The position numbers and the translations under genes are program-made. A stretch of 64,000 nucleotides of DNA from a virus: IMG/VR virus record IMGVR_UViG_2896850075_000002; one strand, given 5' to 3'. Of the stretch, positions 497 to 53,000 are shown piece after piece. The notes beneath the pieces are model-generated. The model did no database searches and was not told the DNA's origin. It worked only from the letters and a program-made list of their open reading frames with translations. How positions within the stretch are numbered: position 1 is the stretch's first letter; every line of letters begins with the position of its first letter.

Positions 497-880
497 TCAG
501 CCCCCGATTACTATTTCATGGATCATCGATGATAAAACAAAAAATGCATACATCGATTCAAAACTTATTAGTTGCCCATTACCAGCATCGTGAAAGATAA
601 AGGCGACCATAAAAAAGACCCACACAAATGTGAGGGCTCCTGTCATTACCGGTTTATAATATGGTACATCAATATTCCAGAACGAATAGACAACTGCTAA
701 CGTCGCTACAATCATGAGTATTGAAATCGAAGGTGGATCATCCATGATATCTAAAACCGTTGGCCGTGGTGGTACGAAGGCAAAGGTTACATTATGCCTA
801 ACGAGAAAATAGACGCCCAATCCATAAGTTTCTAATGATTTCCACAACCAAAAACGATTCTGCTTTAAATGTGTTAACAC
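497..880 (-). CDS. Multi-pass membrane protein, lysis cassette
   Basis: 127 aa, about 4 hydrophobic segments. Confidence 0.65.
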   Translation of the reverse strand: MLTHLKQNRFWLWKSLETYGLGVYFLVRHNVTFAFVPPRPTVLDIMDDPPSISILMIVATLAVVYSFWNIDVPYYKPVMTGALTFVWVFFMVAFIFHDAGNGQLISFESMYAFFVLSSMIHEIVIGG

Positions 881-893
881 ATACTTTCATCTC

Positions 894-1304
894 CTAACCA
901 GTCACCCAAACAAACGTACCGCCTACATAGTCAGTCACATCAAATTGTCCATCCATTGGGCTCTCAAAATTCAAATTTCCATCATTACCCAGTGTTAATG
1001 AAAATGAACGTCCAATTGTTCCTCTTAACGAGAACGGGATAGACTGTTGTGGATAGAAATTCGTTGGTAATTTTGCAATGACAGCATCACGAACTAAGTT
1101 AGTAATTGACAGTCTCAAAACTACAATTTCGCCGATTTTTCTTATACTTGTTTTTCCAATATTAGCTCTGTTTTCGAAACCATTGATTAACGTTAAGTCA
1201 ATCCATCCAGTATCCTCAACCGCTGAACCAAGGCCTTCTAACATTCGGTTCAACGGTTCATCCCAATTTGCTTGACCATGATTAATAGTAGTGATGTTAA
1301 TCAT
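894..1304 (-). CDS. Short tail fibre/receptor-binding-like protein (paralog C)
   Basis: MINITTINHGQANWDE N-terminal motif and DTGW motif shared with 2915-3742. Start refined to ATG 1304 behind GGTGGTG. Confidence 0.7.
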   Translation of the reverse strand: MINITTINHGQANWDEPLNRMLEGLGSAVEDTGWIDLTLINGFENRANIGKTSIRKIGEIVVLRLSITNLVRDAVIAKLPTNFYPQQSIPFSLRGTIGRSFSLTLGNDGNLNFESPMDGQFDVTDYVGGTFVWVTG

Positions 1305-1404
1305 AACTAACACCACCTTTATAAATAATAAAAGGGTTAGAAATACCGGTATATAGGCATTCTACCCCCCCCCCGTCATTTTCTAACTTGTTTTTAATTT
1401 TCAT
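1297..1404 (-). CDS. Poly-G leader peptide (35 aa, MKIKNKLENDGGGVECLYTGISNPFIIYKGGVSYD), not in ORF track
   Basis: SD GGAGG, ATG 1404, G10 run at 1365-1374. Stop overlaps the next ATG. Homologous to 3739-3843. Confidence 0.6.
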   Translation of the reverse strand: MKIKNKLENDGGGVECLYTGISNPFIIYKGGVSYD

Positions 1405-1561
1405 TCTTTTTATCCTCCGTTTCTGTGTCAGTCGTATCTTCATTAATACCAACTAGCTCATTGTATTGATCCTCTGTTAGTAAACCGCCTAGTTTCAAAG
1501 TGCTTAAATTATCCGCATTATACAGCCCCATCGCGTAATACTGTTTGATAAAAATAAACAT
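1394..1561 (-). CDS. XkdX-family small protein (55 aa), not in ORF track
   Basis: MFIFIKQYYAMGLYNADNL...LLTEDQYNELVG; TAATG overlap with the upstream gene. Confidence 0.8.
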   Translation of the reverse strand: MFIFIKQYYAMGLYNADNLSTLKLGGLLTEDQYNELVGINEDTTDTETEDKKNEN

Positions 1562-1911
1562 TAGTTAGTTCCTCCATTCTGTGCAGCAATTGCAAGCATT
1601 GCTTGAGCGTTGAACTGGTCTTGCGCAGTCTTGTTCTGCGCAATTTGCAACATCAATGCCGCATTAGTTTTATCTTGTTCTGACGGCTCCGGTACTGGCA
1701 CTGGATGTGCTGCAAGCCATTCATCCTTATCAGTGCCATTCCATGTAGTCCCATCCCACGTAATTGGCTCGTATAGTCCATTTGTCGGTGCTACTGGCGT
1801 CGCGTTGCCTGGTAACGGATTAGGTAACTCATCATCCGTCATAAAAAATTCACTGTGATCCAGCTCATTGTCTTCATTCCAAAAATATAATATTTGTGGC
1901 AATTTACTCAT
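1561..1911 (-). CDS. Tail fibre assembly/chaperone-like protein
   Basis: P-x-W-DG-x-x-W motif with a helical C-terminus; lies between a fibre gene and XkdX. Confidence 0.6.
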   Translation of the reverse strand: MSKLPQILYFWNEDNELDHSEFFMTDDELPNPLPGNATPVAPTNGLYEPITWDGTTWNGTDKDEWLAAHPVPVPEPSEQDKTNAALMLQIAQNKTAQDQFNAQAMLAIAAQNGGTN

Positions 1912-2863
1912 CCCTTCCTAAATAATTAATGCCTGCAAAATCTAACTTAGTACCGTTTGGCAAGGCTTTGGCTACATATAGTCCATCATCCTTAATGGTT
2001 ACTGGAAATTCGGTTTGACTAGATACATTTCGGCATAATGCTGTGATGCCACCGTCAGCCCCCAAAAACTTATCTGGCATTGCTAAAATTCTCGTTGCTG
2101 CCGGAATATCTGCAGTTGCTACGATTCCAGAAGTCAAATGGACAAGATCATTCACACGTCGAGCAAGCGGTGCATCTTTTGCTTGATACAGGCCTTCCAC
2201 CGCACCAACCATTGTCAAACGAACTAATCCAGTGTCTTCCGCATGAATATCGTTGGCCGCGGGTGCCCAGTACTCTGACTTTCCAACAAATACCTCACCA
2301 AAAAACAAATTGTGATCTACACCATCGGTAGACCCATTGTTGTCAATACGGAATGCTCCCTGAACATTATTACCTGAATTGAAGCTAAGCTTATACAGAA
2401 CTGCTTTAGACGGATTTGGAACAACACTCGTGGTTAATTGAATATTATTCAAATTATCATTTGCATCATGACAAATCATGTAAGCATCAAAGCTTGTAAT
2501 ACCGACAGCACCATACGCAATGAAATAGACATCATAATTTGTGTTGGGTACCAAGGTATACTCATCCGTTATTGCAAAAACCTCCTCATCAACACCGGGC
2601 TTTTCTTTGTCATGTAAGATGCTGAATAAATTGACTTTGCCATTCTTGTATAAGTGATTACGAATAACAAGAACTTTTCCACCAACGGGTGCGGACCAAT
2701 GTTTAGTATTTCGAGGAGTTGCAGAATTTAAGATCAAATTTTGCCGACTAACTGGTCCCCCAGACAAATGAAACGTATCAGAGTCAAGGCCAGAGAAGTT
2801 ATCATTGATAGTCTTTTCCCAATGTTCTTGACCATAATCAACTTTTGCTAAACTTACTGTCAT
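1904..2863 (-). CDS. Tail fibre/receptor-binding protein (paralog B) with carbohydrate-binding-like central domain
   Basis: VDYGQEHWEKTINDNF anchor motif, NLILNS...W beta-sandwich-like region, EDTG motif. Start refined to ATG 2863 (SD AGAAAGGA). Confidence 0.7.
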   Translation of the reverse strand: MTVSLAKVDYGQEHWEKTINDNFSGLDSDTFHLSGGPVSRQNLILNSATPRNTKHWSAPVGGKVLVIRNHLYKNGKVNLFSILHDKEKPGVDEEVFAITDEYTLVPNTNYDVYFIAYGAVGITSFDAYMICHDANDNLNNIQLTTSVVPNPSKAVLYKLSFNSGNNVQGAFRIDNNGSTDGVDHNLFFGEVFVGKSEYWAPAANDIHAEDTGLVRLTMVGAVEGLYQAKDAPLARRVNDLVHLTSGIVATADIPAATRILAMPDKFLGADGGITALCRNVSSQTEFPVTIKDDGLYVAKALPNGTKLDFAGINYLGRDE

Positions 2864-2890
2864 AATTGAACTTCCTTTCTCTAATTCAAA

Positions 2891-2910
2891 GCCGTTCAAT
2901 TGTGAACGGC
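2891..2910 (-). terminator. Perfect 8-bp hairpin (GCCGTTCA/TGAACGGC) followed by a short U run between fibre genes
   Basis: Inverted repeat seen directly; only UUU follows. Confidence 0.5.
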
Positions 2911-2914
2911 TACT

Positions 2915-3742
2915 TTACGAAATAAATACATGGTTAAAATTAATCCAAAATGTGTCGTCGCTTGTTTCTGAACAATATTGCAACTGAATTTTTCCATTGT
3001 AAAAATTCCAGCCATATTGAACTCCAAATGCTCGTGTATCAAAGTGAGTGTTAACCATTTGGTGCTCGCTAAACCAATCCGTAACTAGCTGTGGCAGCGT
3101 AGCAACGTTTAATGTTAGATTCCATCCCTTGGTAATAGCGATGCCATTCACAGAACCGCTCAGCATTAACATATCAACTGCCCCTAACTGAATAATTCTA
3201 AAGGCGGGAGTATCACCTAAAAAATTACTGTAAACTTTTGCACCATTCATTAGAGTAATCCCATCCCTAATCCAGCCAGTATCTGTGACTTGTGCAGTGT
3301 CCTCCACTGCTGGGCGCCAATCCGTTGCCTTATCACCAAGCTCAACTTGTACATGATATTGACCGGTGTTCAAACTGACATTTCGTACAGAAATTTGCAG
3401 AATACCAGTATTATTTGTCGTTACAGTCAAAGGACTTCCAGCTTTAACGCCATTAGTACCGGAAACTGCCTTAAATCCAGCGTTTCCTGCAAATAGATCC
3501 TGTGTTCCTTGGTCATCACGTGCTGGAATATTAGTAGATACCGTATACGTAGTATTGGCAGCTAATTGTAAATTGACTGATGGCATTTCCAAATAATCTT
3601 CCCGATACTGACTACGTTTGAATTTCTCCAAGCTAAAATAATTTCGGCCTCCGATAACCATATTGTTCAAATTTTTGAAATTCGTATTGATAACCCCATC
3701 CCAGCCTGCTTGACCGGAATCAATATTGGTGATATTAGTCAT
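2915..3742 (-). CDS. Tail fibre/receptor-binding protein (paralog A)
   Basis: MTNITNIDSGQAGWDG anchor, GGRN...GDKATDWRPAVED module, DTGW motif. Confidence 0.75.
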   Translation of the reverse strand: MTNITNIDSGQAGWDGVINTNFKNLNNMVIGGRNYFSLEKFKRSQYREDYLEMPSVNLQLAANTTYTVSTNIPARDDQGTQDLFAGNAGFKAVSGTNGVKAGSPLTVTTNNTGILQISVRNVSLNTGQYHVQVELGDKATDWRPAVEDTAQVTDTGWIRDGITLMNGAKVYSNFLGDTPAFRIIQLGAVDMLMLSGSVNGIAITKGWNLTLNVATLPQLVTDWFSEHQMVNTHFDTRAFGVQYGWNFYNGKIQLQYCSETSDDTFWINFNHVFIS

Positions 3743-3843
3743 AAATCACACCACCATTCCAATATGATAAAGGGGTTAGAAACGTTGATAATACTAAGTT
3801 TATACCCCCCCCCGGCGTTTTCTAATGTAGATTTAATCTTCAT
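3739..3843 (-). CDS. Poly-G leader peptide (34 aa, MKIKSTLENAGGGYKLSIINVSNPFIILEWWCDL), not in ORF track
   Basis: SD GGAGG, ATG 3843, G9 run at 3805-3813. ATGA overlap with the fibre gene start. Confidence 0.6.
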   Translation of the reverse strand: MKIKSTLENAGGGYKLSIINVSNPFIILEWWCDL

Positions 3844-3858
3844 GTTTTTGTCCTCCCA

Positions 3859-4692
3859 TTACTTAAAAGTTGCATTCAAACACTGAATACCAATAGTTGC
3901 TGGCTCCGAAATAAGATACATCCATTTTCCATCACTCGCACGGGTAACTGCAAAGCTACCGATATTGAAGTCCGGTAATGCAGCTTTGATTTGTGCTGTC
4001 ATGAACCGCGGAATCATCACTTGACCATTATTCTGCAAATCAACATTCATTGTTAATTCCGTCATTAGCGGAACACCGGCATACGAAGTTGTTTGTGCAA
4101 TACCAGCGCCATTGTAATAGCCCCATGCTTTAAATCTGGGATAATCGTTCAGATTCAGTTTGGCGGTATCAATTGCGTAGGACTTTTCATTCAGTACAAC
4201 TGCTACTTGTTGGTTCTGAACATAGGTCGTTGTCGCTAATCCATTCGGATCAACCGCAACCGTCACATTCTGGATTTGACCAACGACCACAGTAACGGCC
4301 AACTTGAATTCCAACAAAACTTTATCTGCAAAACTAGGCATCATTTCAGCTTCTACAGCCTTGATTACCGCGTATAGAATTTCACTGCCACCAGTTTCCT
4401 TAGCATAAATGCCAATCGCATTAACTGGATAGCTAATTTCTAGATCACGATTCGTAAAAAAAACTTCGACTTGCTTTAACGTATGATCATCTAGTCTGAC
4501 AATAGAATTGTCCGTCAGTACACCACTCTGCATCTCATCCGGCATCGCTGTTAATTCACCAACGCTTACTGTCGATAGGTCTTTGCTACTTGCGGTCGTG
4601 CGTGTCAGCGAGAAGGTTGTTTTACCCGCTGCTGCTCGACTTGCTAATAATAAGCCTGCACTTGTCAATTGTGAATTTGCATATGTTGCCAT
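3859..4692 (-). CDS. Baseplate-proximal tail fibre/collar protein
   Basis: LTSAG...L...T..F N-terminus and IGIYAK motif typical of tail-collar fibre N-domains; follows the XkdU-like gene. Confidence 0.7.
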   Translation of the reverse strand: MATYANSQLTSAGLLLASRAAAGKTTFSLTRTTASSKDLSTVSVGELTAMPDEMQSGVLTDNSIVRLDDHTLKQVEVFFTNRDLEISYPVNAIGIYAKETGGSEILYAVIKAVEAEMMPSFADKVLLEFKLAVTVVVGQIQNVTVAVDPNGLATTTYVQNQQVAVVLNEKSYAIDTAKLNLNDYPRFKAWGYYNGAGIAQTTSYAGVPLMTELTMNVDLQNNGQVMIPRFMTAQIKAALPDFNIGSFAVTRASDGKWMYLISEPATIGIQCLNATFK

Positions 4693-5334
4693 TTAACTCA
4701 CCTCCTTTAATTGTGTACTCTCAGCGGTCACAGACGTGTTGACCGTGACATGTTGCACGGTACCGACGCGCATAATTTCATCCGCTAACAGCATAAAACT
4801 GACTGGTTCCGCATCTACACTAGTTGCAACCGCAACTTGAACTGCTTGGCCAGCATTAAATTGCTCGACTGTCCGCTCTGTACGTCGCGTTGTTATTTGA
4901 TAGGTTAAATTGGCTGGAACATAAACATTCAACAAATAGCGTAGCCGTTTGATTTGTGTAACACTCACATCCGCTTCCAAGCTGATGGTGCTCAAGATTG
5001 AATTGATCGCATCAACTTCAATATCAGCCGGTATCTGCATTGCCTTAACAAGCGAACGAAAATAGCCAATTGTGATTGGCTGTGGCGGTAAGATACGCAT
5101 CAAAATGTCGTACCGTCGCTCTTCCAAAGTAGCCCCTGATTCAGGTGTGATTCCCAGTTGATATTCGAATAACGACAATCCTTGGGCATCCGCCGTAAAG
5201 ACGTATTGATTCATCAATATTCGATTCAGTTGGTCCGTATTCGCATCAACTGCCACCTGTTCAGCATTGACTAGCGAATGCATTTCCACAATATCATCAT
5301 AATAATCTGGTAAATAGTCACTTAATTTAGCCAT
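4693..5334 (-). CDS. Baseplate wedge protein (XkdU/YmfQ-like)
   Basis: YLPDYY, TA...GL..E..LGI, TLEERR motifs; gene order. Confidence 0.85.
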   Translation of the reverse strand: MAKLSDYLPDYYDDIVEMHSLVNAEQVAVDANTDQLNRILMNQYVFTADAQGLSLFEYQLGITPESGATLEERRYDILMRILPPQPITIGYFRSLVKAMQIPADIEVDAINSILSTISLEADVSVTQIKRLRYLLNVYVPANLTYQITTRRTERTVEQFNAGQAVQVAVATSVDAEPVSFMLLADEIMRVGTVQHVTVNTSVTAESTQLKEVS

Positions 5335-8943: not shown

Positions 8944-11900
8944 TTAGCTCATCGCCGTGCCATTTTTACGAATCAAATAATTCTCAAGCTCGCGAGCGAT
9001 AGTTTCGCCATCAAGTGCACCATTACCGCTGCTAACCACTTGAATTGCACCTGGTTGTACTTGAACAACCATACTTGAAGCATCGCCATAATGGTTAGCT
9101 GTCACCGTTTCACGAGCATTATCGCCAAATGGCGTCGTAGCCGGAACATCGCTTATATGGCTTCCTGTAGCTCCGAATTGAATCTGACCATTAGCAGTGA
9201 TAGAACTACCGCTCATTCCATTAATCGCATTAGACACATTACCAATGACTTCTAATGCTCTATTGAAGCCAGCTGCTAGTTGATCACCAGGGTTTAGCCC
9301 AGTTAAACCAAAATTTCCTAACGATGAGTCAATATTGGCAGCACTCACTGCTGACGTTGCCATCTTAGCTCCCGCCTTACTAATCAACGAGCTAGTTCCA
9401 TTCATCCCGATTGCCATACCTTGGCCCATATAGTCACCAATTTCAGCAAATAACCGCGATGGTGAATGAATTTTAGCAGCTGCACGAGCAGCACGATTAG
9501 CTTGTGCAATCAGGGCATTTGCAGCCGCAGTAACCGTTCCTAATCTCGACCGCATTCCGGCGGCCAATCCGGCACTAATCATGGCACCAGCCGAACGGGC
9601 AGCACTAACACCACTCTTCATTGCACTGGTAGCAGCATTAACTAAGGCGTGTGCGGCAGACCGTGCATTACCTGTTCCGCCTTTAAAGGCGCTAACAAAT
9701 TTATTAACCGCATCTCGTGCAATAGATCCTAATGTATTTAGTCCGGTCTTAACAACACTAACCGCGCTGACCATTGTTTTTAGGCTAGCGGCAGCTGATG
9801 CAGCTTTGTTTGCTATTGAAGCAACCTGAGTCGCTACAAGTTTCGTTGCTACTCCCAATGCAGCCATACCGATAGCAGACGCGGCGGCAGCGATTCCTAG
9901 CCCTGCGAGAACAAGGGCAGTGGCAGCAGCCACCAGCACAATAGCAGCAAGTCCGATCATTGCCATCATTGCTCCCATCATAACCATCGTTAAACCGACC
10001 ATCGCCATCATCCCTCCAGCCATAACCAGCATCAGACCAGCCATCGCCATCATTGCTCCAGCCATAACCATCACAAGGCCTGTAAAAGCCATCATCGCTC
10101 CGGCCATAACCAGCATCAAGCCAACCATCGCCATCATTGCTCCAGCCATAACTAATATTAGCCCCATTGCGGCAACCATTGCACCGGCCATAACTAGCAT
10201 TAGTGCAACACCTAGCATCATTATTCCAACTGCAGCCACCAATGACATTGGTGCTACTAACATCAAACTTACCGCTAATAGCATCATTCCAACCCCAGCA
10301 ATCAAGCCCGTTGCGGCAATCCCCATTAGGGCCACGCTCATTAATAGCAAACCAATTGCGGCAACCATACTAAACACGGCCACTAACGGCATTGCTACGG
10401 CTAGAATCATCATTCCAACTGCTGCAATCATCACTGTTACTGCTACCATGGTCATTGCTACGCCTAATAGCAACAAACCAATCGCAGCTAGCATGGACAA
10501 CGGTGCTAGTAGCACCATACTAACCGCCAATATCATCATGCCAACTCCAGCAATCAAACCTGTAACGGCAATGACAGTTAAAGCCACACTCATAAGTAAC
10601 AGTCCGACAGCCGCAATCATACTGAATACGGCAATCAACGGCAATGTGATTGCCAGCATCAACATCCCAACAGCAGCGATAATAACAGTCACCACGATGG
10701 CAGCCATTGCAACGGCAAATAGCAGCGCTCCCACGGCTGCGATAACAAATCCAACACCTAAGATTAATAAGGAAGCTCCTAATAGAATAAGACCCACTGC
10801 AGCAACAATAGCAGCCAAACCGAAGACGGCAACCGCACCAGCAAGCGCTAATAGTCCAATAGCGGCACTAACACCATACTGAGAAATCAACGGCAATTGA
10901 GTTGCTAATAGCGCCAAGCCAGCCGATGCAAGTAACACCGCAATACCAATCAATAGTAAAGCAGCACCAAGAATTAAGAATCCCACCGCACCTCCGATTA
11001 AGGACGGTCCGAGTAGTTTAACGATGACAGCTAATACAGCGACAGCCGCAATCATTCCAAAGAACATTGCAATAGCTGGCCAACCAGCTGACACCAGCTT
11101 GATTGTTGCGTTCGCAATCATCAATAGTCCCGCGCCTGCTAAAGCAGCGCCAGCACCAATCAGAACCATAGCAATCCCTAGCTTCAACATTGATGTCGCA
11201 GCCGCTCCCGTCTTACCGGGTTCTGGTACTGGAATTTCTGGAACTTTAGGTGTCTTTTGAAACATTGATAATGCTGATCTAATCCCTTTAAGCGCTTGGA
11301 ACCCTTTCATCGCAGTGACAACCAAACCAACTGCCACCGCCACTGCTTTGATTTGTCCTGGGCTCATTTTTGATAAAGCATTCAGGCCGGCAATCAGAAC
11401 CGTGAACTTTAATCCCTGCATTCCAGACTTCATAACGACAAACGCGGCCCCAATCGTTTTAAGCGTTCCTGGGCTTAGCTTACTTACAGCATCCGCTACC
11501 GCGCTAATCGATTTAGCCGCGCCTTTGATTGTGTTACCCGCCAATTCACCAAAACTCTTGAACGGATTTTTACCACCACCTGCCAGCTTCCCAAACACTC
11601 GTTTGGCAGACGCACCCAGAGTCGTAAACATAGACTGTACCGACTTGATAGCGCCAGTGTCCGTAAATCCGGCCCACATTTGTTTTGCATTTGCGACGAC
11701 GGTTTTAAATGCATTCATCGCACCATCAGCAATTGGCTTAAAATCAATTTTATTAATGGAGTCAGACAAGCTGGATACCATTTTAATACCAACTTGACTT
11801 GCGCTATCAAAGGCATCTTGCAACTTAATGGCGACACCTTCTTTGAGTCCATCAACTGCTTGTCCGACAGTCTTAAATTGTGTTGCCATCTTAGTAAAGC

Positions 11901-25243: not shown

Positions 25244-26065
25244 TTAAACATTAGTAATATAAATTACATTATCCTCAACTTGTACCTCATACAAGAAATC
25301 CTTCTTAGCAGAATAGTACATATAACCGCTAATTCCCTTTTTACCCTTTTCTATTGCATCATCCTCCATGTAATCTCGCATATGTTCAGACATAAACTCT
25401 TGATCTGAGCTAGCATCGACCCATTTTGGCAAGGTAACAATCACCTGATTAATAACATTACAATTCTTGAACACTGTAAATTCAGTCCCTGTACCCAAAG
25501 AAGTGTTACCATCTAACTTATAGGTAACAAAGCTATCATCTTCACGAATCTTTGTCATTCCTTTAGGGTCAATAACGGAATGTACCGCATTCTTCTTTAA
25601 AGAATGTGTCTTATTGAATAAGAGATCTAACAACGTCAAAGTTATATCTTCTGCTGCAAAGATAACAAACCTGGCCTCGACGGGTGTTATAGTTTGTGAT
25701 CTTACCGCTGATCCATGTGAAACTGAAGTTAAATTTCGTAAATTTCCTATCTCAGTAACAATATCAATCACATTATCGAATACCGTTGGAAATTGTTCGC
25801 TTGCCGCTAACTCTGAACTCAAGGAGCTTAGTGTACCCTTGATTAATTTATTCAGACTAAGATACCTATCTTTATCAATATCCTCATCATTAAGTGCTTT
25901 ATATACCCATTTACAAGTTGATTCAATCATGCTTCGCGCATAATTAACAGATTCCCCGTAACGTTCCTCGTTATAGCTATCATTCATTTCAGAGTAACGT
26001 TCATCAATTGATGCTATTCCAAAACTATCAACCTCGGGCCTCAAAATTTCACCAGGATGTCTCAT
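25244..26065 (-). CDS. Moron: Abi_C/HEPN-like domain protein with an extra C-terminal domain
   Basis: AVNYARSMIESTCK...LNKL...IGNLRNLTSVSHG (R110-x6-H117). Confidence 0.75.
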   Translation of the reverse strand: MRHPGEILRPEVDSFGIASIDERYSEMNDSYNEERYGESVNYARSMIESTCKWVYKALNDEDIDKDRYLSLNKLIKGTLSSLSSELAASEQFPTVFDNVIDIVTEIGNLRNLTSVSHGSAVRSQTITPVEARFVIFAAEDITLTLLDLLFNKTHSLKKNAVHSVIDPKGMTKIREDDSFVTYKLDGNTSLGTGTEFTVFKNCNVINQVIVTLPKWVDASSDQEFMSEHMRDYMEDDAIEKGKKGISGYMYYSAKKDFLYEVQVEDNVIYITNV

Positions 26066-38455: not shown

Positions 38456-38581
38456 AATTGAACAAATACATAACAAAGGATAACTCTACCCTTTTTATAA
38501 AATTAATTATACCTGAAAGGAAGTGATGCCACAATCCTTCAAATTCTACCCGCCTAGGTGAAATTTAAGGAGGAAATCAAA

Positions 38582-39745
38582 ATGGCAAGTATTACTAAAA
38601 GAAATGGTAAGTGGGCCGTCCGCGTCAGTTACTATGACGAATTCGGCAAACGATGCTTTAAAAACAAAAGTGGTTTCACTCGCAAAAAAGAAGCTGAACA
38701 ATGGGCTACCGAATTAGAACAAGCTAAGTTTGATAAATCCATTGGTAAGACTGACACAACGACACTCTTTTCTGATTACTATGAACGATGGCTAGAAACT
38801 TACAAATTTGGCAAAGTTGCACGAATTACCGAACAGGAATACCGATACACTCTCCGTCAAATCGCTGAACTTTTACCAAAGATCCAACTATCAGCAATGA
38901 CTCGGCTGCGGTATCAACAATTCATTAATGACTTTGTTCATGGTAACTCACAACAGCGTACCAAACGTAATCTTAAAGACGACCAGCCCTATCATAGTAA
39001 ATCATCCGTTGAAAAGCTGCACGGTCATATTCACGCTGCTGTTGTTGATGCCGTGGCTGATAACTTAATTAAGTCTGATTTCTGTCTGCACGCTGAGTTA
39101 GGCGGTCATGCGGGTAAATCAGCACAGTTAAAGTACCTTGATGCCGAGGACATGCAAAAACTAGCCGCTGAGGTTAATACGGATATCAAGTTAACCTCTA
39201 CCAGCAAATCAATGATCTACACTGGTTTACTAACTGGAATGCGAGTGGCCGAGGTTTCTGCACTCACTTGGCCCGATATTGATTGGCAAAACAAAACCGT
39301 ACGCGTTAATAAGTCATGGGATTATGTTTATGGTCAAAAATTCAAGAAAACTAAAACCGAATCGAGTATTCGGACAATAACCGTAACTGACGATCTTTTA
39401 AATCATCTTAAAACGTTACACGCTTTACAAATGGCAGTTAAATTGGACAACCCAGATCATTTGGTTTTCATGAATAAGCGTGGTCGTATTCCCTCTCCAG
39501 GTGCATGCGATAATCTGCTTAAAAAATACCACGACTCATTGGGTATTAAACGGATTAGCTTTCACGGCCTACGTCACACTCATGCTAGTTACCTACTCTA
39601 CTGTGGTGTGAAGATGGAATACATCTCAAAACGATTAGGTCACAAGAACAGTTCCATCACTCGTAACGTCTACGCTCATATGATTAAAGAAGACCAACGA
39701 CAGGAAAACGAACGGACCTTAAAAGCCCTCTCTCAGGTCAACTAA
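38582..39745 (+). CDS. int: Tyrosine integrase
   Basis: N-terminal arm-binding domain (W.VRVSY), TGMRVAE, HGLRH, RLGH, VYAH; SD AAGGAGG. Confidence 0.97.
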   Translation: MASITKRNGKWAVRVSYYDEFGKRCFKNKSGFTRKKEAEQWATELEQAKFDKSIGKTDTTTLFSDYYERWLETYKFGKVARITEQEYRYTLRQIAELLPKIQLSAMTRLRYQQFINDFVHGNSQQRTKRNLKDDQPYHSKSSVEKLHGHIHAAVVDAVADNLIKSDFCLHAELGGHAGKSAQLKYLDAEDMQKLAAEVNTDIKLTSTSKSMIYTGLLTGMRVAEVSALTWPDIDWQNKTVRVNKSWDYVYGQKFKKTKTESSIRTITVTDDLLNHLKTLHALQMAVKLDNPDHLVFMNKRGRIPSPGACDNLLKKYHDSLGIKRISFHGLRHTHASYLLYCGVKMEYISKRLGHKNSSITRNVYAHMIKEDQRQENERTLKALSQVN

Positions 39746-39747
39746 CA

Positions 39748-40011
39748 TGGTGCACTTTTGGTGCACTCAACAAAAATGATAGCGCTAAAAGGCTTGATAT
39801 CAATGATATGAGAGTGCACTCGAAAGGCTGTACTCTCCTTAAATTGATTATCTGTACCAGCCTTGAGCGTCGTCAATCGTTGAGTTGACGGCGTTTTTAT
39901 TTTAATTTAATTGTTTCAAAACGGCTTTAATTGATATAATGGTGCACTTTTTGGTGCACTTTTACGAAAAAACATCAAATTTCGACGATTTAGTGCACTC
40001 AAAAGTGCACC
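39748..40011 (+). other. attP: core CTGTACTCTCCTT (39828-39840) with GTGCAC-containing arm sites
   Basis: Seven GTGCAC motifs (TGGTGCACT direct pairs on both sides). The core resembles the 3' end of Lactobacillus tRNA-Ser(CGA), the mv4-type target, as recalled. Confidence 0.8.
39867..39903 (+). terminator. Intrinsic terminator just downstream of the att core
   Basis: GCGTCGTCAA/TTGACGGCGT stem followed by TTTTATTTT. Confidence 0.7.
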
Positions 40012-41958: not shown

Positions 41959-42369
41959 CTAACCAGTCACCCAAACAAACGTACCGCCTACATAGTCAGT
42001 CACATCAAATTGTCCATCCATTGGGCTCTCAAAATTCAAATTTCCATCATTACCCAGTGTTAATGAAAATGAACGTCCAATTGTTCCTCTTAACGAGAAC
42101 GGGATAGACTGTTGTGGATAGAAATTCGTTGGTAATTTTGCAATGACAGCATCACGAACTAAGTTAGTAATTGACAGTCTCAAAACTACAATTTCGCCGA
42201 TTTTTCTTATACTTGTTTTTCCAATATTAGCTCTGTTTTCGAAACCATTGATTAACGTTAAGTCAATCCATCCAGTATCCTCAACCGCTGAACCAAGGCC
42301 TTCTAACATTCGGTTCAACGGTTCATCCCAATTTGCTTGACCATGATTAATAGTAGTGATGTTAATCAT
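41959..42369 (-). CDS. Short fibre paralog C (copy 2)
   Basis: Identical to 894-1304. Confidence 0.7.
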   Translation of the reverse strand: MINITTINHGQANWDEPLNRMLEGLGSAVEDTGWIDLTLINGFENRANIGKTSIRKIGEIVVLRLSITNLVRDAVIAKLPTNFYPQQSIPFSLRGTIGRSFSLTLGNDGNLNFESPMDGQFDVTDYVGGTFVWVTG

Positions 42370-42469
42370 AACTAACACCACCTTTATAAATAATAAAAGG
42401 GTTAGAAATACCGGTATATAGGCATTCTACCCCCCCCCCGTCATTTTCTAACTTGTTTTTAATTTTCAT
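42362..42469 (-). CDS. Poly-G leader peptide (copy 2, G10)
   Basis: Same as 1297-1404. Confidence 0.6.
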   Translation of the reverse strand: MKIKNKLENDGGGVECLYTGISNPFIIYKGGVSYD

Positions 42470-44864: not shown

Positions 44865-44909
44865 TTATACCCCCCCCCCGGCGTTTTCTAATGTAGATTT
44901 AATCTTCAT
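44865..44909 (-). pseudogene. Frameshifted poly-G leader (G10, 14 aa MKIKSTLENAGGGV*)
   Basis: C run 44870-44879 has 10 C versus 9 in copy 1. Confidence 0.6.
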
Positions 44910-50009: not shown

Positions 50010-53000
50010 TTAGCTCATCGCCGTGCCATTTTTACGAATCAAATAATTCTCAAGCTCGCGAGCGATAGTTTCGCCATCAAGTGCACCATTACCGCTGCTA
50101 ACCACTTGAATTGCACCTGGTTGTACTTGAACAACCATACTTGAAGCATCGCCATAATGGTTAGCTGTCACCGTTTCACGAGCATTATCGCCAAATGGCG
50201 TCGTAGCCGGAACATCGCTTATATGGCTTCCTGTAGCTCCGAATTGAATCTGACCATTAGCAGTGATAGAACTACCGCTCATTCCATTAATCGCATTAGA
50301 CACATTACCAATGACTTCTAATGCTCTATTGAAGCCAGCTGCTAGTTGATCACCAGGGTTTAGCCCAGTTAAACCAAAATTTCCTAACGATGAGTCAATA
50401 TTGGCAGCACTCACTGCTGACGTTGCCATCTTAGCTCCCGCCTTACTAATCAACGAGCTAGTTCCATTCATCCCGATTGCCATACCTTGGCCCATATAGT
50501 CACCAATTTCAGCAAATAACCGCGATGGTGAATGAATTTTAGCAGCTGCACGAGCAGCACGATTAGCTTGTGCAATCAGGGCATTTGCAGCCGCAGTAAC
50601 CGTTCCTAATCTCGACCGCATTCCGGCGGCCAATCCGGCACTAATCATGGCACCAGCCGAACGGGCAGCACTAACACCACTCTTCATTGCACTGGTAGCA
50701 GCATTAACTAAGGCGTGTGCGGCAGACCGTGCATTACCTGTTCCGCCTTTAAAGGCGCTAACAAATTTATTAACCGCATCTCGTGCAATAGATCCTAATG
50801 TATTTAGTCCGGTCTTAACAACACTAACCGCGCTGACCATTGTTTTTAGGCTAGCGGCAGCTGATGCAGCTTTGTTTGCTATTGAAGCAACCTGAGTCGC
50901 TACAAGTTTCGTTGCTACTCCCAATGCAGCCATACCGATAGCAGACGCGGCGGCAGCGATTCCTAGCCCTGCGAGAACAAGGGCAGTGGCAGCAGCCACC
51001 AGCACAATAGCAGCAAGTCCGATCATTGCCATCATTGCTCCCATCATAACCATCGTTAAACCGACCATCGCCATCATCCCTCCAGCCATAACCAGCATCA
51101 GACCAGCCATCGCCATCATTGCTCCAGCCATAACCATCACAAGGCCTGTAAAAGCCATCATCGCTCCGGCCATAACCAGCATCAAGCCAACCATCGCCAT
51201 CATTGCTCCAGCCATAACTAATATTAGCCCCATTGCGGCAACCATTGCACCGGCCATAACTAGCATTAGTGCAACACCTAGCATCATTATTCCAACTGCA
51301 GCCACCAATGACATTGGTGCTACTAACATCAAACTTACCGCTAATAGCATCATTCCAACCCCAGCAATCAAGCCCGTTGCGGCAATCCCCATTAGGGCCA
51401 CGCTCATTAATAGCAAACCAATTGCGGCAACCATACTAAACACGGCCACTAACGGCATTGCTACGGCTAGAATCATCATTCCAACTGCTGCAATCATCAC
51501 TGTTACTGCTACCATGGTCATTGCTACGCCTAATAGCAACAAACCAATCGCAGCTAGCATGGACAACGGTGCTAGTAGCACCATACTAACCGCCAATATC
51601 ATCATGCCAACTCCAGCAATCAAACCTGTAACGGCAATGACAGTTAAAGCCACACTCATAAGTAACAGTCCGACAGCCGCAATCATACTGAATACGGCAA
51701 TCAACGGCAATGTGATTGCCAGCATCAACATCCCAACAGCAGCGATAATAACAGTCACCACGATGGCAGCCATTGCAACGGCAAATAGCAGCGCTCCCAC
51801 GGCTGCGATAACAAATCCAACACCTAAGATTAATAAGGAAGCTCCTAATAGAATAAGACCCACTGCAGCAACAATAGCAGCCAAACCGAAGACGGCAACC
51901 GCACCAGCAAGCGCTAATAGTCCAATAGCGGCACTAACACCATACTGAGAAATCAACGGCAATTGAGTTGCTAATAGCGCCAAGCCAGCCGATGCAAGTA
52001 ACACCGCAATACCAATCAATAGTAAAGCAGCACCAAGAATTAAGAATCCCACCGCACCTCCGATTAAGGACGGTCCGAGTAGTTTAACGATGACAGCTAA
52101 TACAGCGACAGCCGCAATCATTCCAAAGAACATTGCAATAGCTGGCCAACCAGCTGACACCAGCTTGATTGTTGCGTTCGCAATCATCAATAGTCCCGCG
52201 CCTGCTAAAGCAGCGCCAGCACCAATCAGAACCATAGCAATCCCTAGCTTCAACATTGATGTCGCAGCCGCTCCCGTCTTACCGGGTTCTGGTACTGGAA
52301 TTTCTGGAACTTTAGGTGTCTTTTGAAACATTGATAATGCTGATCTAATCCCTTTAAGCGCTTGGAACCCTTTCATCGCAGTGACAACCAAACCAACTGC
52401 CACCGCCACTGCTTTGATTTGTCCTGGGCTCATTTTTGATAAAGCATTCAGGCCGGCAATCAGAACCGTGAACTTTAATCCCTGCATTCCAGACTTCATA
52501 ACGACAAACGCGGCCCCAATCGTTTTAAGCGTTCCTGGGCTTAGCTTACTTACAGCATCCGCTACCGCGCTAATCGATTTAGCCGCGCCTTTGATTGTGT
52601 TACCCGCCAATTCACCAAAACTCTTGAACGGATTTTTACCACCACCTGCCAGCTTCCCAAACACTCGTTTGGCAGACGCACCCAGAGTCGTAAACATAGA
52701 CTGTACCGACTTGATAGCGCCAGTGTCCGTAAATCCGGCCCACATTTGTTTTGCATTTGCGACGACGGTTTTAAATGCATTCATCGCACCATCAGCAATT
52801 GGCTTAAAATCAATTTTATTAATGGAGTCAGACAAGCTGGATACCATTTTAATACCAACTTGACTTGCGCTATCAAAGGCATCTTGCAACTTAATGGCGA
52901 CACCTTCTTTGAGTCCATCAACTGCTTGTCCGACAGTCTTAAATTGTGTTGCCATCTTAGTAAAGCCTTTATTAGTCCCAGCTTTTGAGACAGCATTGAA

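Follow-up and report, generated by a model that had tools for sequence, protein, structure and literature searches.

A hypermutable poly-G leader cassette with a conserved translational design precedes receptor-binding protein genes in Lactiplantibacillus prophages: a candidate phase-variable coupler

Heritable and reversible choice between alternative tail-fibre tips is well known from the G segment of phage Mu and the C segment of phage P1, in both of which a site-specific invertase acts on inverted repeats. Here we analysed a stretch of 64,000 nucleotides (nt) from IMG/VR virus record IMGVR_UViG_2896850075_000002 (hereafter the window, to which all unprefixed coordinates refer), in which two homologous cassettes, A and C, each made of a short leader open reading frame (ORF) with an internal poly-G tract, stand directly before genes for predicted receptor-binding proteins (RBPs). 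Like Mu and P1, the virus is a temperate myovirus for which we propose a heritable, reversible choice of fibre; unlike them, its cassettes are direct repeats and slippage would be the switch. A diversity-generating retroelement or an invertase was set aside on this direct-repeat arrangement, no search of the prophage for a reverse transcriptase or invertase having been made.

Slippage of poly-G tracts in a phage genome has a precedent in Campylobacter phages of the genus Fletchervirus, whose RBP genes carry hypermutable poly-G tracts according to the papers that cite the original study (Sorensen et al. 2021, Cell Rep 35:109214, cited in PMC12823448 and PMC10877375). In both cases the tract belongs to the phage genome, and as those citing papers present it, Fletchervirus subpopulations differ in their RBPs. 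There the tract is placed inside the RBP gene, where slippage truncates the protein of a virulent phage of a Gram-negative host, whereas the tracts described here sit in leader ORFs distinct from the RBP genes, and the phage is temperate and belongs to lactic acid bacteria (LAB); none of the cassettes in this study has its tract within an RBP gene. Homopolymer slippage has also been described as bet-hedging at contingency loci of phages T2 and T4 (Gomez, Barrick and Waters 2025, bioRxiv 10.1101/2025.10.21.683753), but those tracts lie in the coding sequences of agt and rIIA and inactivate them directly, with no leader ORF and no link to RBPs. A third relative is the G repeat in the leader of Helicobacter pylori tlpB, which mediates length-dependent post-transcriptional control by the small RNA (sRNA) RepG (PMC8295292). 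In common with the cassettes described here, tlpB has in its mRNA leader a G repeat of variable length that pairs with C/U-rich RNA; in tlpB, however, that RNA is an sRNA acting in trans and the repeat is not translated, whereas here the partner is a CCCUUUU segment in cis and the repeat is translated as Gly codons.

A close analogue in design is the pil1/pil3 system of Streptococcus gallolyticus (Danne et al. 2014, PLoS Pathog, PMC3894217), in which a GCAGA repeat (x 22) lies in a leader-peptide gene with its own ribosome-binding site (RBS). In pil1, the repeat stands at the 5′ end of the operon behind the promoter, and termination at the stem-loop, which carries a 6-T run, is proven (PMC3894217). 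The phage cassettes share with pil1 the placement of the repeat in a short leader ORF with its own RBS, so that repeat number sets where the ribosome stops relative to a stem-loop. They also share the Firmicute setting, in which pil1 switches a surface adhesion structure stochastically ON and OFF, much as the cassettes may act on RBPs. They differ in that the repeat is a poly-G run that itself forms the 5′ arm of the hairpin, in that OFF leaders stop inside the hairpin, and in that the ON leader runs 35-40 nt further to a stop overlapping the start of the target gene. In addition, the cassettes lie inside a late operon and occur one to three times per phage. Our literature search turned up neither a poly-G switch in a leader ORF before phage RBP genes nor any such report on LAB phages; a preliminary description of the locus, made from its sequence alone, had likewise presented the arrangement as not known from LAB phages, a novelty that the published pilus analogue now qualifies.

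Translation of the window placed both leader ORFs, their Shine-Dalgarno (SD) sequences, the G9 and G10 runs and the overlaps between leader stop and fibre start where that description had put them (Table 1). Cassettes and RBP genes of this region lie on the minus strand, and the two cassettes can be aligned over about 200 nt with 82% column identity. At G9, leader A has 34 codons (peptide MKIKSTLENAGGGYKLSIINVSNPFIILEWWCDL, in short MKIKSTLENAGGG...SNPFIILEWWCDL), and its TGA overlaps the ATG (3742-3740) of a gene of 275 amino acids (aa). At G10, leader C has 35 codons (peptide MKIKNKLENDGGGVECLYTGISNPFIIYKGGVSYD, in short MKIKNKLENDGGG...SNPFIIYKGGVSYD), and its TAA lies 5 nt beyond the ATG (1304-1302) of a 136-aa gene. 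An XkdX-like gene shares its last 11 nt with the start of leader C (1394-1404, minus strand), which links XkdX, leader C and RBP C in a series of frames that each overlap the next.

Table 1. Positions of the leader cassettes, their hairpins, the receptor-binding protein genes and associated features in the 64,000-nt window.
Feature	Position	Strand	Remarks
Fibre anchor, 277 aa	3859..4692	-	Directly upstream of cassette A; homologous to the N-terminus of the large fibre of Lj771/KC5a
Cassette A	3739..3857	-	SD GGGAGG 3857-3852 and leader ORF, ATG 3843-3841, TGA 3741-3739
Poly-G tract A	3805..3813	-	G9 in window copy 1
Hairpin A	3769..3813	-	G run pairs with CCCCUUU 3775-3769; inner stem weak in the window copy
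RBP paralogue A, 275 aa	2915..3742	-	SD GGTGGTG 3755-3749
RBP paralogue B, 319 aa	1904..2863	-	Own SD, without poly-G cassette
Cassette C	1297..1418	-	SD GGAGG 1418-1414 and leader ORF, ATG 1404-1402, TAA 1299-1297
Poly-G tract C	1365..1374	-	G10 in both prophage copies of the window
Hairpin C	1330..1374	-	G run pairs with CCCUUUU 1336-1330; inner stem AGAAUGCC/GGUAUUUCU
RBP paralogue C, 136 aa	894..1304	-	SD GGTGGTG 1317-1311; N-terminal helix and beta-sandwich head
Copy 2 leader A	44865..44909	-	14 codons, G10 at 44870-44879
Copy 2 leader C	42362..42469	-	G10 at 42430-42439, identical to copy 1
Integrase	38558..39745	+	

Run length determines where each leader ends, a change of length shortening the ORF from about 35 codons to 13-22. 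Frame translation confirmed the early stops that had been noted, namely after 22 aa at G11 and immediately at G9 (as also at G12) for leader C, and after 14 aa at G10 for leader A. For leader A, the consequences stated in the preliminary description held, but a second read-through class had been overlooked: G9 leads to a stop at +1 relative to the RBP start, and G8 or G11 leads to a stop at +5. The claim that no run length fuses a leader to its fibre was borne out as well: the RBP frame always contains stops between the run and the start codon, which makes a leader-RBP fusion impossible at any length. Fusion by frameshifting or bypassing was rejected, since no cassette lacks stops in the RBP frame and paralogue B, which has no leader, begins at the same N-terminal motif. 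Across the 3.37 Mb genome, these four tracts, two in each prophage copy, account for every G or C run of at least 9; outside them there are just two G8 runs.

The four tracts belong to two complete 41,065-bp prophage copies that the chromosome carries in tandem; positions 1-22934 of the window equal 41066-64000 except for one gap. The copies are flanked by 14-nt att cores (CTGTACTCTCCTTA) and integrated at the 3′ end of a tRNA-Ser(CGA) gene, with the middle att at 39828-39841. Compared over 41,080 nt, they differ by zero substitutions and by one indel, which is tract A itself (G9 in copy 1, G10 in copy 2). Because tract A is G10 in copy 2, its leader A is cut to 14 codons (MKIKSTLENAGGGV-stop). 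A homopolymer consensus error in a long-read assembly could produce the same difference, and independent assemblies were therefore sought.

Assemblies of the same prophage were gathered by exact-protein look-ups and from contigs; the coded runs X1 and X6 among them may duplicate named runs. The roughly 12 assemblies show 0-4 substitutions per 5-10 kb and no 1-nt indel outside the tracts, yet tract A ranges over G9-G11 and tract C over G10-G13, in six A/C combinations. G9/G10 was found in window copy 1; G10/G10 in window copy 2, GCA_001435655, SRR30815946, ERZ1760274 and X6; G10/G11 in ERR3330861; G10/G12 in GCA_025515415; G11/G13 in GCA_030262435; and G9/G11 in SRR36233878, X1 and SRR32034556, the last with a flank variant in which G9 in tract A gives an immediate stop. 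GCA_002897175 has G9 at tract A and a scaffold gap at tract C. The preliminary description had named invariance of run length in populations and relatives as what would speak against a switch; among near-identical copies, run length proved to be the only variable site, and for relatives this check did not refute the switch. It had also read the lengths seen in the window as the coupling state, and G9 does let leader A read through, but the most frequent tract A length is G10, at which the leader is OFF. The sole non-tract indel among the assemblies comprises 12 nt near the end of the tape-measure gene in GCA_025515415 (L061:250-277 versus L060).

Three assemblies have contig or scaffold breaks at the tracts; one contig terminates within tract A, and two tracts are the cut points of a 952-nt contig from a related phage. 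Homopolymers of 9-13 are prone to error, and the G9/G10 pair comes from a single long-read-type assembly; the lengths could therefore be sequencing or assembly errors. We consider this scarcely credible: differing lengths recur across many short-read assemblies that are independent of each other and have a word depth of about 200x, and 5-10 kb of sequence shows no further indel; A8 and T7 runs never vary; and the spread reaches G13, beyond plus or minus 1. The length pattern is what a hypermutable tract gives, and by comparison of these sequences slipped-strand changes of the G run appear to far outnumber other mutations in the phage. Of the two raw-read runs covered (X24 and X32), neither contained reads of the phage, and Logan contigs lose minority variants.

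Related cassettes were identified by DNA, pattern and covariance-model searches. Of 22 genomes of other Lactiplantibacillus species, 7 have prophages that carry them, in one to three copies per prophage; none was found in 41 other sampled Lactobacillaceae genera save for one divergent copy. Run lengths extend from G6 to G13. In the 18 distinct cassettes, an SD and an ATG stand 24-33 nt 5′ of the run, always at a distance that is a multiple of 3, and the tract lies 59-63 nt upstream of the RBP start. In frame 2 relative to that start, the first stop after the run is the one at +5 (xATGGCTAA) in all 15 aligned cassettes and in 3 more, against a shuffle expectation of about 0.27 per cassette for the open frame; clustering below 80% identity gives 13 groups of cassettes, and median identity in the run-to-stop stretch is 62%. 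The other two frames contain one to four stops each, and leaders read in them are cut off at 11-22 codons, inside the hairpin described below and 35-62 nt short of the RBP start. A read-through class exists in every cassette, ending at ATGA (+1) or at +5 (+8 in the distant cassette).

The peptide itself is not what is conserved. The preliminary description had pointed to a shared leader peptide (MKIK...SNPFII), and it is indeed present in both leaders of the window, but in relatives only the frame persists. The TTTCTAACC motif is conserved and is read as SNP or FLT depending on the cassette, owing to frame-shifting indels; since these indels shift the frame over the motif, it is the translation path that is kept and not the leader peptide. 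That the cassette always precedes fibre genes, as had been suggested for testing, was found throughout: all cassette-linked genes in relatives belong to one RBP family.

Several relatives illustrate the range of contexts. One related prophage (L065:3304-4953) has three successive cassettes (G12, G8 and G8) before RBP genes of 154, 264 and 160 aa, and a contig of a second sample (L066) is cut at two of these three tracts. The distant cassette, from another Lactobacillaceae genus (L038:1516-1625, genome G073), contains MRKNRNTLIIFLGG and a G6 run and obeys the one-frame rule, a G7 run being the length that would be read as far as +8 of a TTG start. It lies between two small paralogous tail genes with a different N-terminal motif. 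In Lactiplantibacillus sp. DA1 (L069:2880-3411), a remnant prophage has head genes directly before small tail genes. Its RBP C protein is identical to that of the window, in flanks of no more than about 87% identity, a combination that points to recent exchange of the module of cassette and RBP. In related prophages without cassettes, the distal gene abuts the anchor gene.

An Rfam search of positions 800-4800 gave no family, and megablast and blastn searches with the region and with cassette C against isolated phages (50,697 records) gave no match. Pattern scans of viral contigs and JGI metagenomes yielded only chance hits outside Lactiplantibacillus, and a metagenome scan for this phage's own tracts found none.

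A conserved RNA hairpin, overlooked in the preliminary description, which had otherwise listed the leader, its SD and the G run correctly, also belongs to the cassette. Every cassette, folded alone, adopts a common hairpin of -11 to -23 kcal/mol in which the G run pairs with CCCUUUU around an inner stem, AGAAUGCUG/CAGCAUUUCU. Four of the six inner pairs are changed on both sides, and 94% of cells are paired in the model-fitted alignment. C/U changes opposite G point to pairing in the RNA, and covariation supports the hairpin: the score is 0.255 versus 0.19 for shuffles and 0.10-0.15 for slid partners, on only 14 distinct rows that were fitted to the model. Pairing of an upstream TTAGAAA with TTTCTAA was also considered and rejected, as the compensatory changes fit a downstream AGAA copy instead.

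How the tract might act can be framed by these features. With moderate confidence, we read the cassette as a contingency locus in a short, efficiently initiated leader ORF that gates the RBP of a temperate myovirus by translational coupling, and thus probably as a heritable random on/off switch for which host-binding proteins the virus carries. Slipped-strand changes of the G run reset the reading frame of the leader. At a read-through length (one class, two for A), ribosomes translate about 35 codons through the hairpin and across the SD and start of the RBP gene, terminating 5 nt (or 1 nt) past that start; at other lengths they terminate 11-22 codons in, inside the hairpin and 35-62 nt short of it. 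Arriving leader ribosomes may raise RBP translation by termination-reinitiation or by clearing local structure. RBP B would then be constitutive and RBPs A and C stochastic and heritable, giving up to four virion types per genome and possibly serving as a bet-hedging host-range device. Transcriptional or ribosomal slippage on the G run may leave the OFF states leaky.

Given pil1, the hairpin and its U-rich tail might instead form a premature terminator that read-through leaders keep open, transcription rather than translation being switched. Such attenuation is proven in a Firmicute for a leader-peptide repeat followed by a stem-loop (PMC3894217), and both the stability of the conserved hairpins and the U-rich tails (at least five U in the 8 nt after the C run in 11 of 15 cassettes) are in keeping with it. 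We nevertheless judge it quite unlikely. A classical terminator discriminant, which serves as a rough guide only, is positive in just 4 of 15 cassettes, and a consensus scan calls no cassette hairpin a terminator, which leaves the hairpin a weak candidate for that role. In pil1, OFF leaders stop at least 28 nt before the stem-loop and ON leaders in or after it (PMC3894217), whereas OFF stops here fall inside the hairpin, a position that gives ON in pil1. Moreover, the 5′ arm of the stem is the G run itself, which every leader ribosome crosses, and an efficient terminator at cassette C would cut off the downstream holin and lysin. Finally, the ON stop is kept at +5, 35-40 nt past the hairpin, which is needless for anti-termination and favours coupling at the start codon.

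Expression could also be set without any heritable change. RNA polymerase and ribosomes are known to slip on runs of at least nine identical bases, and slippage on the G run, with a hairpin after it, could yield a fixed mixture of frames and hence an expression ratio, possibly alongside a DNA switch. This is very unlikely in our view: the length differences are observed in DNA, and the hairpin begins within the run, at a spacing unlike that of a classical frameshift stimulator.

A number of observations, together with the possible consensus error in the tandem pair, weigh against gating by translational coupling. The RBP genes have good SDs of their own at normal spacing. Single-sequence folding z-scores of the window's own cassettes are not significant, and the predicted masking of the RBP SD is no stronger than that of shuffled sequences (a mean of -7.2 kcal/mol against -6.1 in the shuffles, with SD pairing of 4.8/7 in both). 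A significant RBS hairpin occurs in only 3-4 of 15 cassettes (L007b, L009, L012). A simple masked-RBS model was accordingly dropped as unsupported, the folding being indistinguishable from shuffles. About half of the reference-genome cassettes are at read-through length and about half at OFF length, as a neutral random walk would also give. In the DA1 remnant, the leader is dead (codon 2 is TAA, with G11) and yet the RBP is intact, although the prophage is itself a remnant.

These points bear on the possibility that hypermutable tracts exert no regulation, in which case the cassette would be a constitutive translational coupler, an element of RNA stability or processing, or a conserved module boundary at which recombination can swap RBP genes, and length noise would be neutral in lysogens. 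The RBP genes' own SDs, the lack of significant masking and the about equal frequency of ON and OFF lengths would fit, as would the occurrence of the cassette with an identical RBP C in a different, diverged prophage background and its complete absence from some related prophages. Neutral tracts should, however, decay by interruption, and uninterrupted runs of G7-G13 persist at 62% flank identity; conservation extends both to the frame left open as far as +5 and to the early stops of the other two; and no other G or C run of at least 9 is tolerated genome-wide. On this balance we hold an effect-free tract to be unlikely. A hypermutable element with a conserved translational design is well supported by the sequence comparisons, while its action as a switch is unproven.

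The genes that follow the cassettes are predicted to encode receptor-binding proteins. The structure model of RBP C (41 homologues) has a predicted local distance difference test (pLDDT) score of 92.6. Its Foldseek matches include TP901-1 BppL, Listeria phage PSA gp15 and the head of the lactococcal phage p2 RBP, with probability 1.0 to 3ejc, 4v96, 6r5w, 2f0c and 2bse and a TM-score of up to 0.74 on head-only targets; as modelled, RBP C is of the TP901-1/p2/PSA-type fold. The model of RBP A was too poor for use (pLDDT 58). In RBP A, a middle domain is inserted between the N-terminal motif and the C-terminal EDTGW domain that the paralogues share, and the PHROG matches of RBP B are to tail fibre/host specificity and PblB-type receptor-binding proteins. 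An N-terminal motif, MxNITxIxxGQAxWD..N, and a C-terminal DTGW domain are common to A, B and C and recur in the cassette-linked genes of relatives. Proteins of the TP901-1/p2/PSA type dock as homotrimers on a baseplate or fibre protein and bind a cell-wall saccharide; the motif common to A, B and C suggests a shared docking site. Directly after the stop of RBP A, a perfect 9-bp hairpin (2890-2911, minus strand; AGCCGTTCA/TGAACGGCT) is followed by TTTGAATT and may be a partial terminator or stabiliser between RBPs A and B.

The tail module as a whole is of PBSX/Mu type, with Baseplate_J, a gp48-like protein, the 277-aa fibre anchor, A, B, a 116-aa protein, XkdX, C, holin and lysin. The nearest isolated phages, Lj771, KC5a and phiAQ113, have one large fibre gene and share only the fibre-anchor N-terminus with the window, at 36-39% identity.

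More broadly, the cassette may be a portable phase-variable translational coupler of about 100 nt, placed before each extra TP901-1-type RBP gene (up to three per phage) in temperate phages of Gram-positive hosts, yielding 2^n heritable virion types per genome and representing a widespread, undescribed class of switch; we regard the case for and against this generalisation as evenly balanced. Strong initiation, a poly-G run, a hairpin and a stop that overlaps the start of the next gene would make up this unit, with the RBP coding sequence never damaged. If tract length gates RBP synthesis, the temperate phage of an industrially important LAB carries a built-in random generator of host range, which would bear on phage resistance of starter and probiotic strains and on sequence-based prediction of host range. 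It would also extend phage contingency loci from in-gene frameshifts, as in Campylobacter and T-even phages, to a regulatory leader design previously proven only for the pil1 pili of bacteria. For annotation, the leaders are at present unannotated, and assemblies break or miscount at the tracts. Sequenced isolates already supply natural variants (A9/C10, A10/C10, A10/C12 and A11/C13).

Two further features of the window were noted. Positions 9958-10152 (and 51024-51218 in the second copy) hold two adjacent copies of about 111 nt, 82% identical, in the tail region and probably within the tape-measure gene. Positions 25244-26065 contain a candidate Abi_C/HEPN-like defence gene, a label taken from a separate preliminary description of the window.

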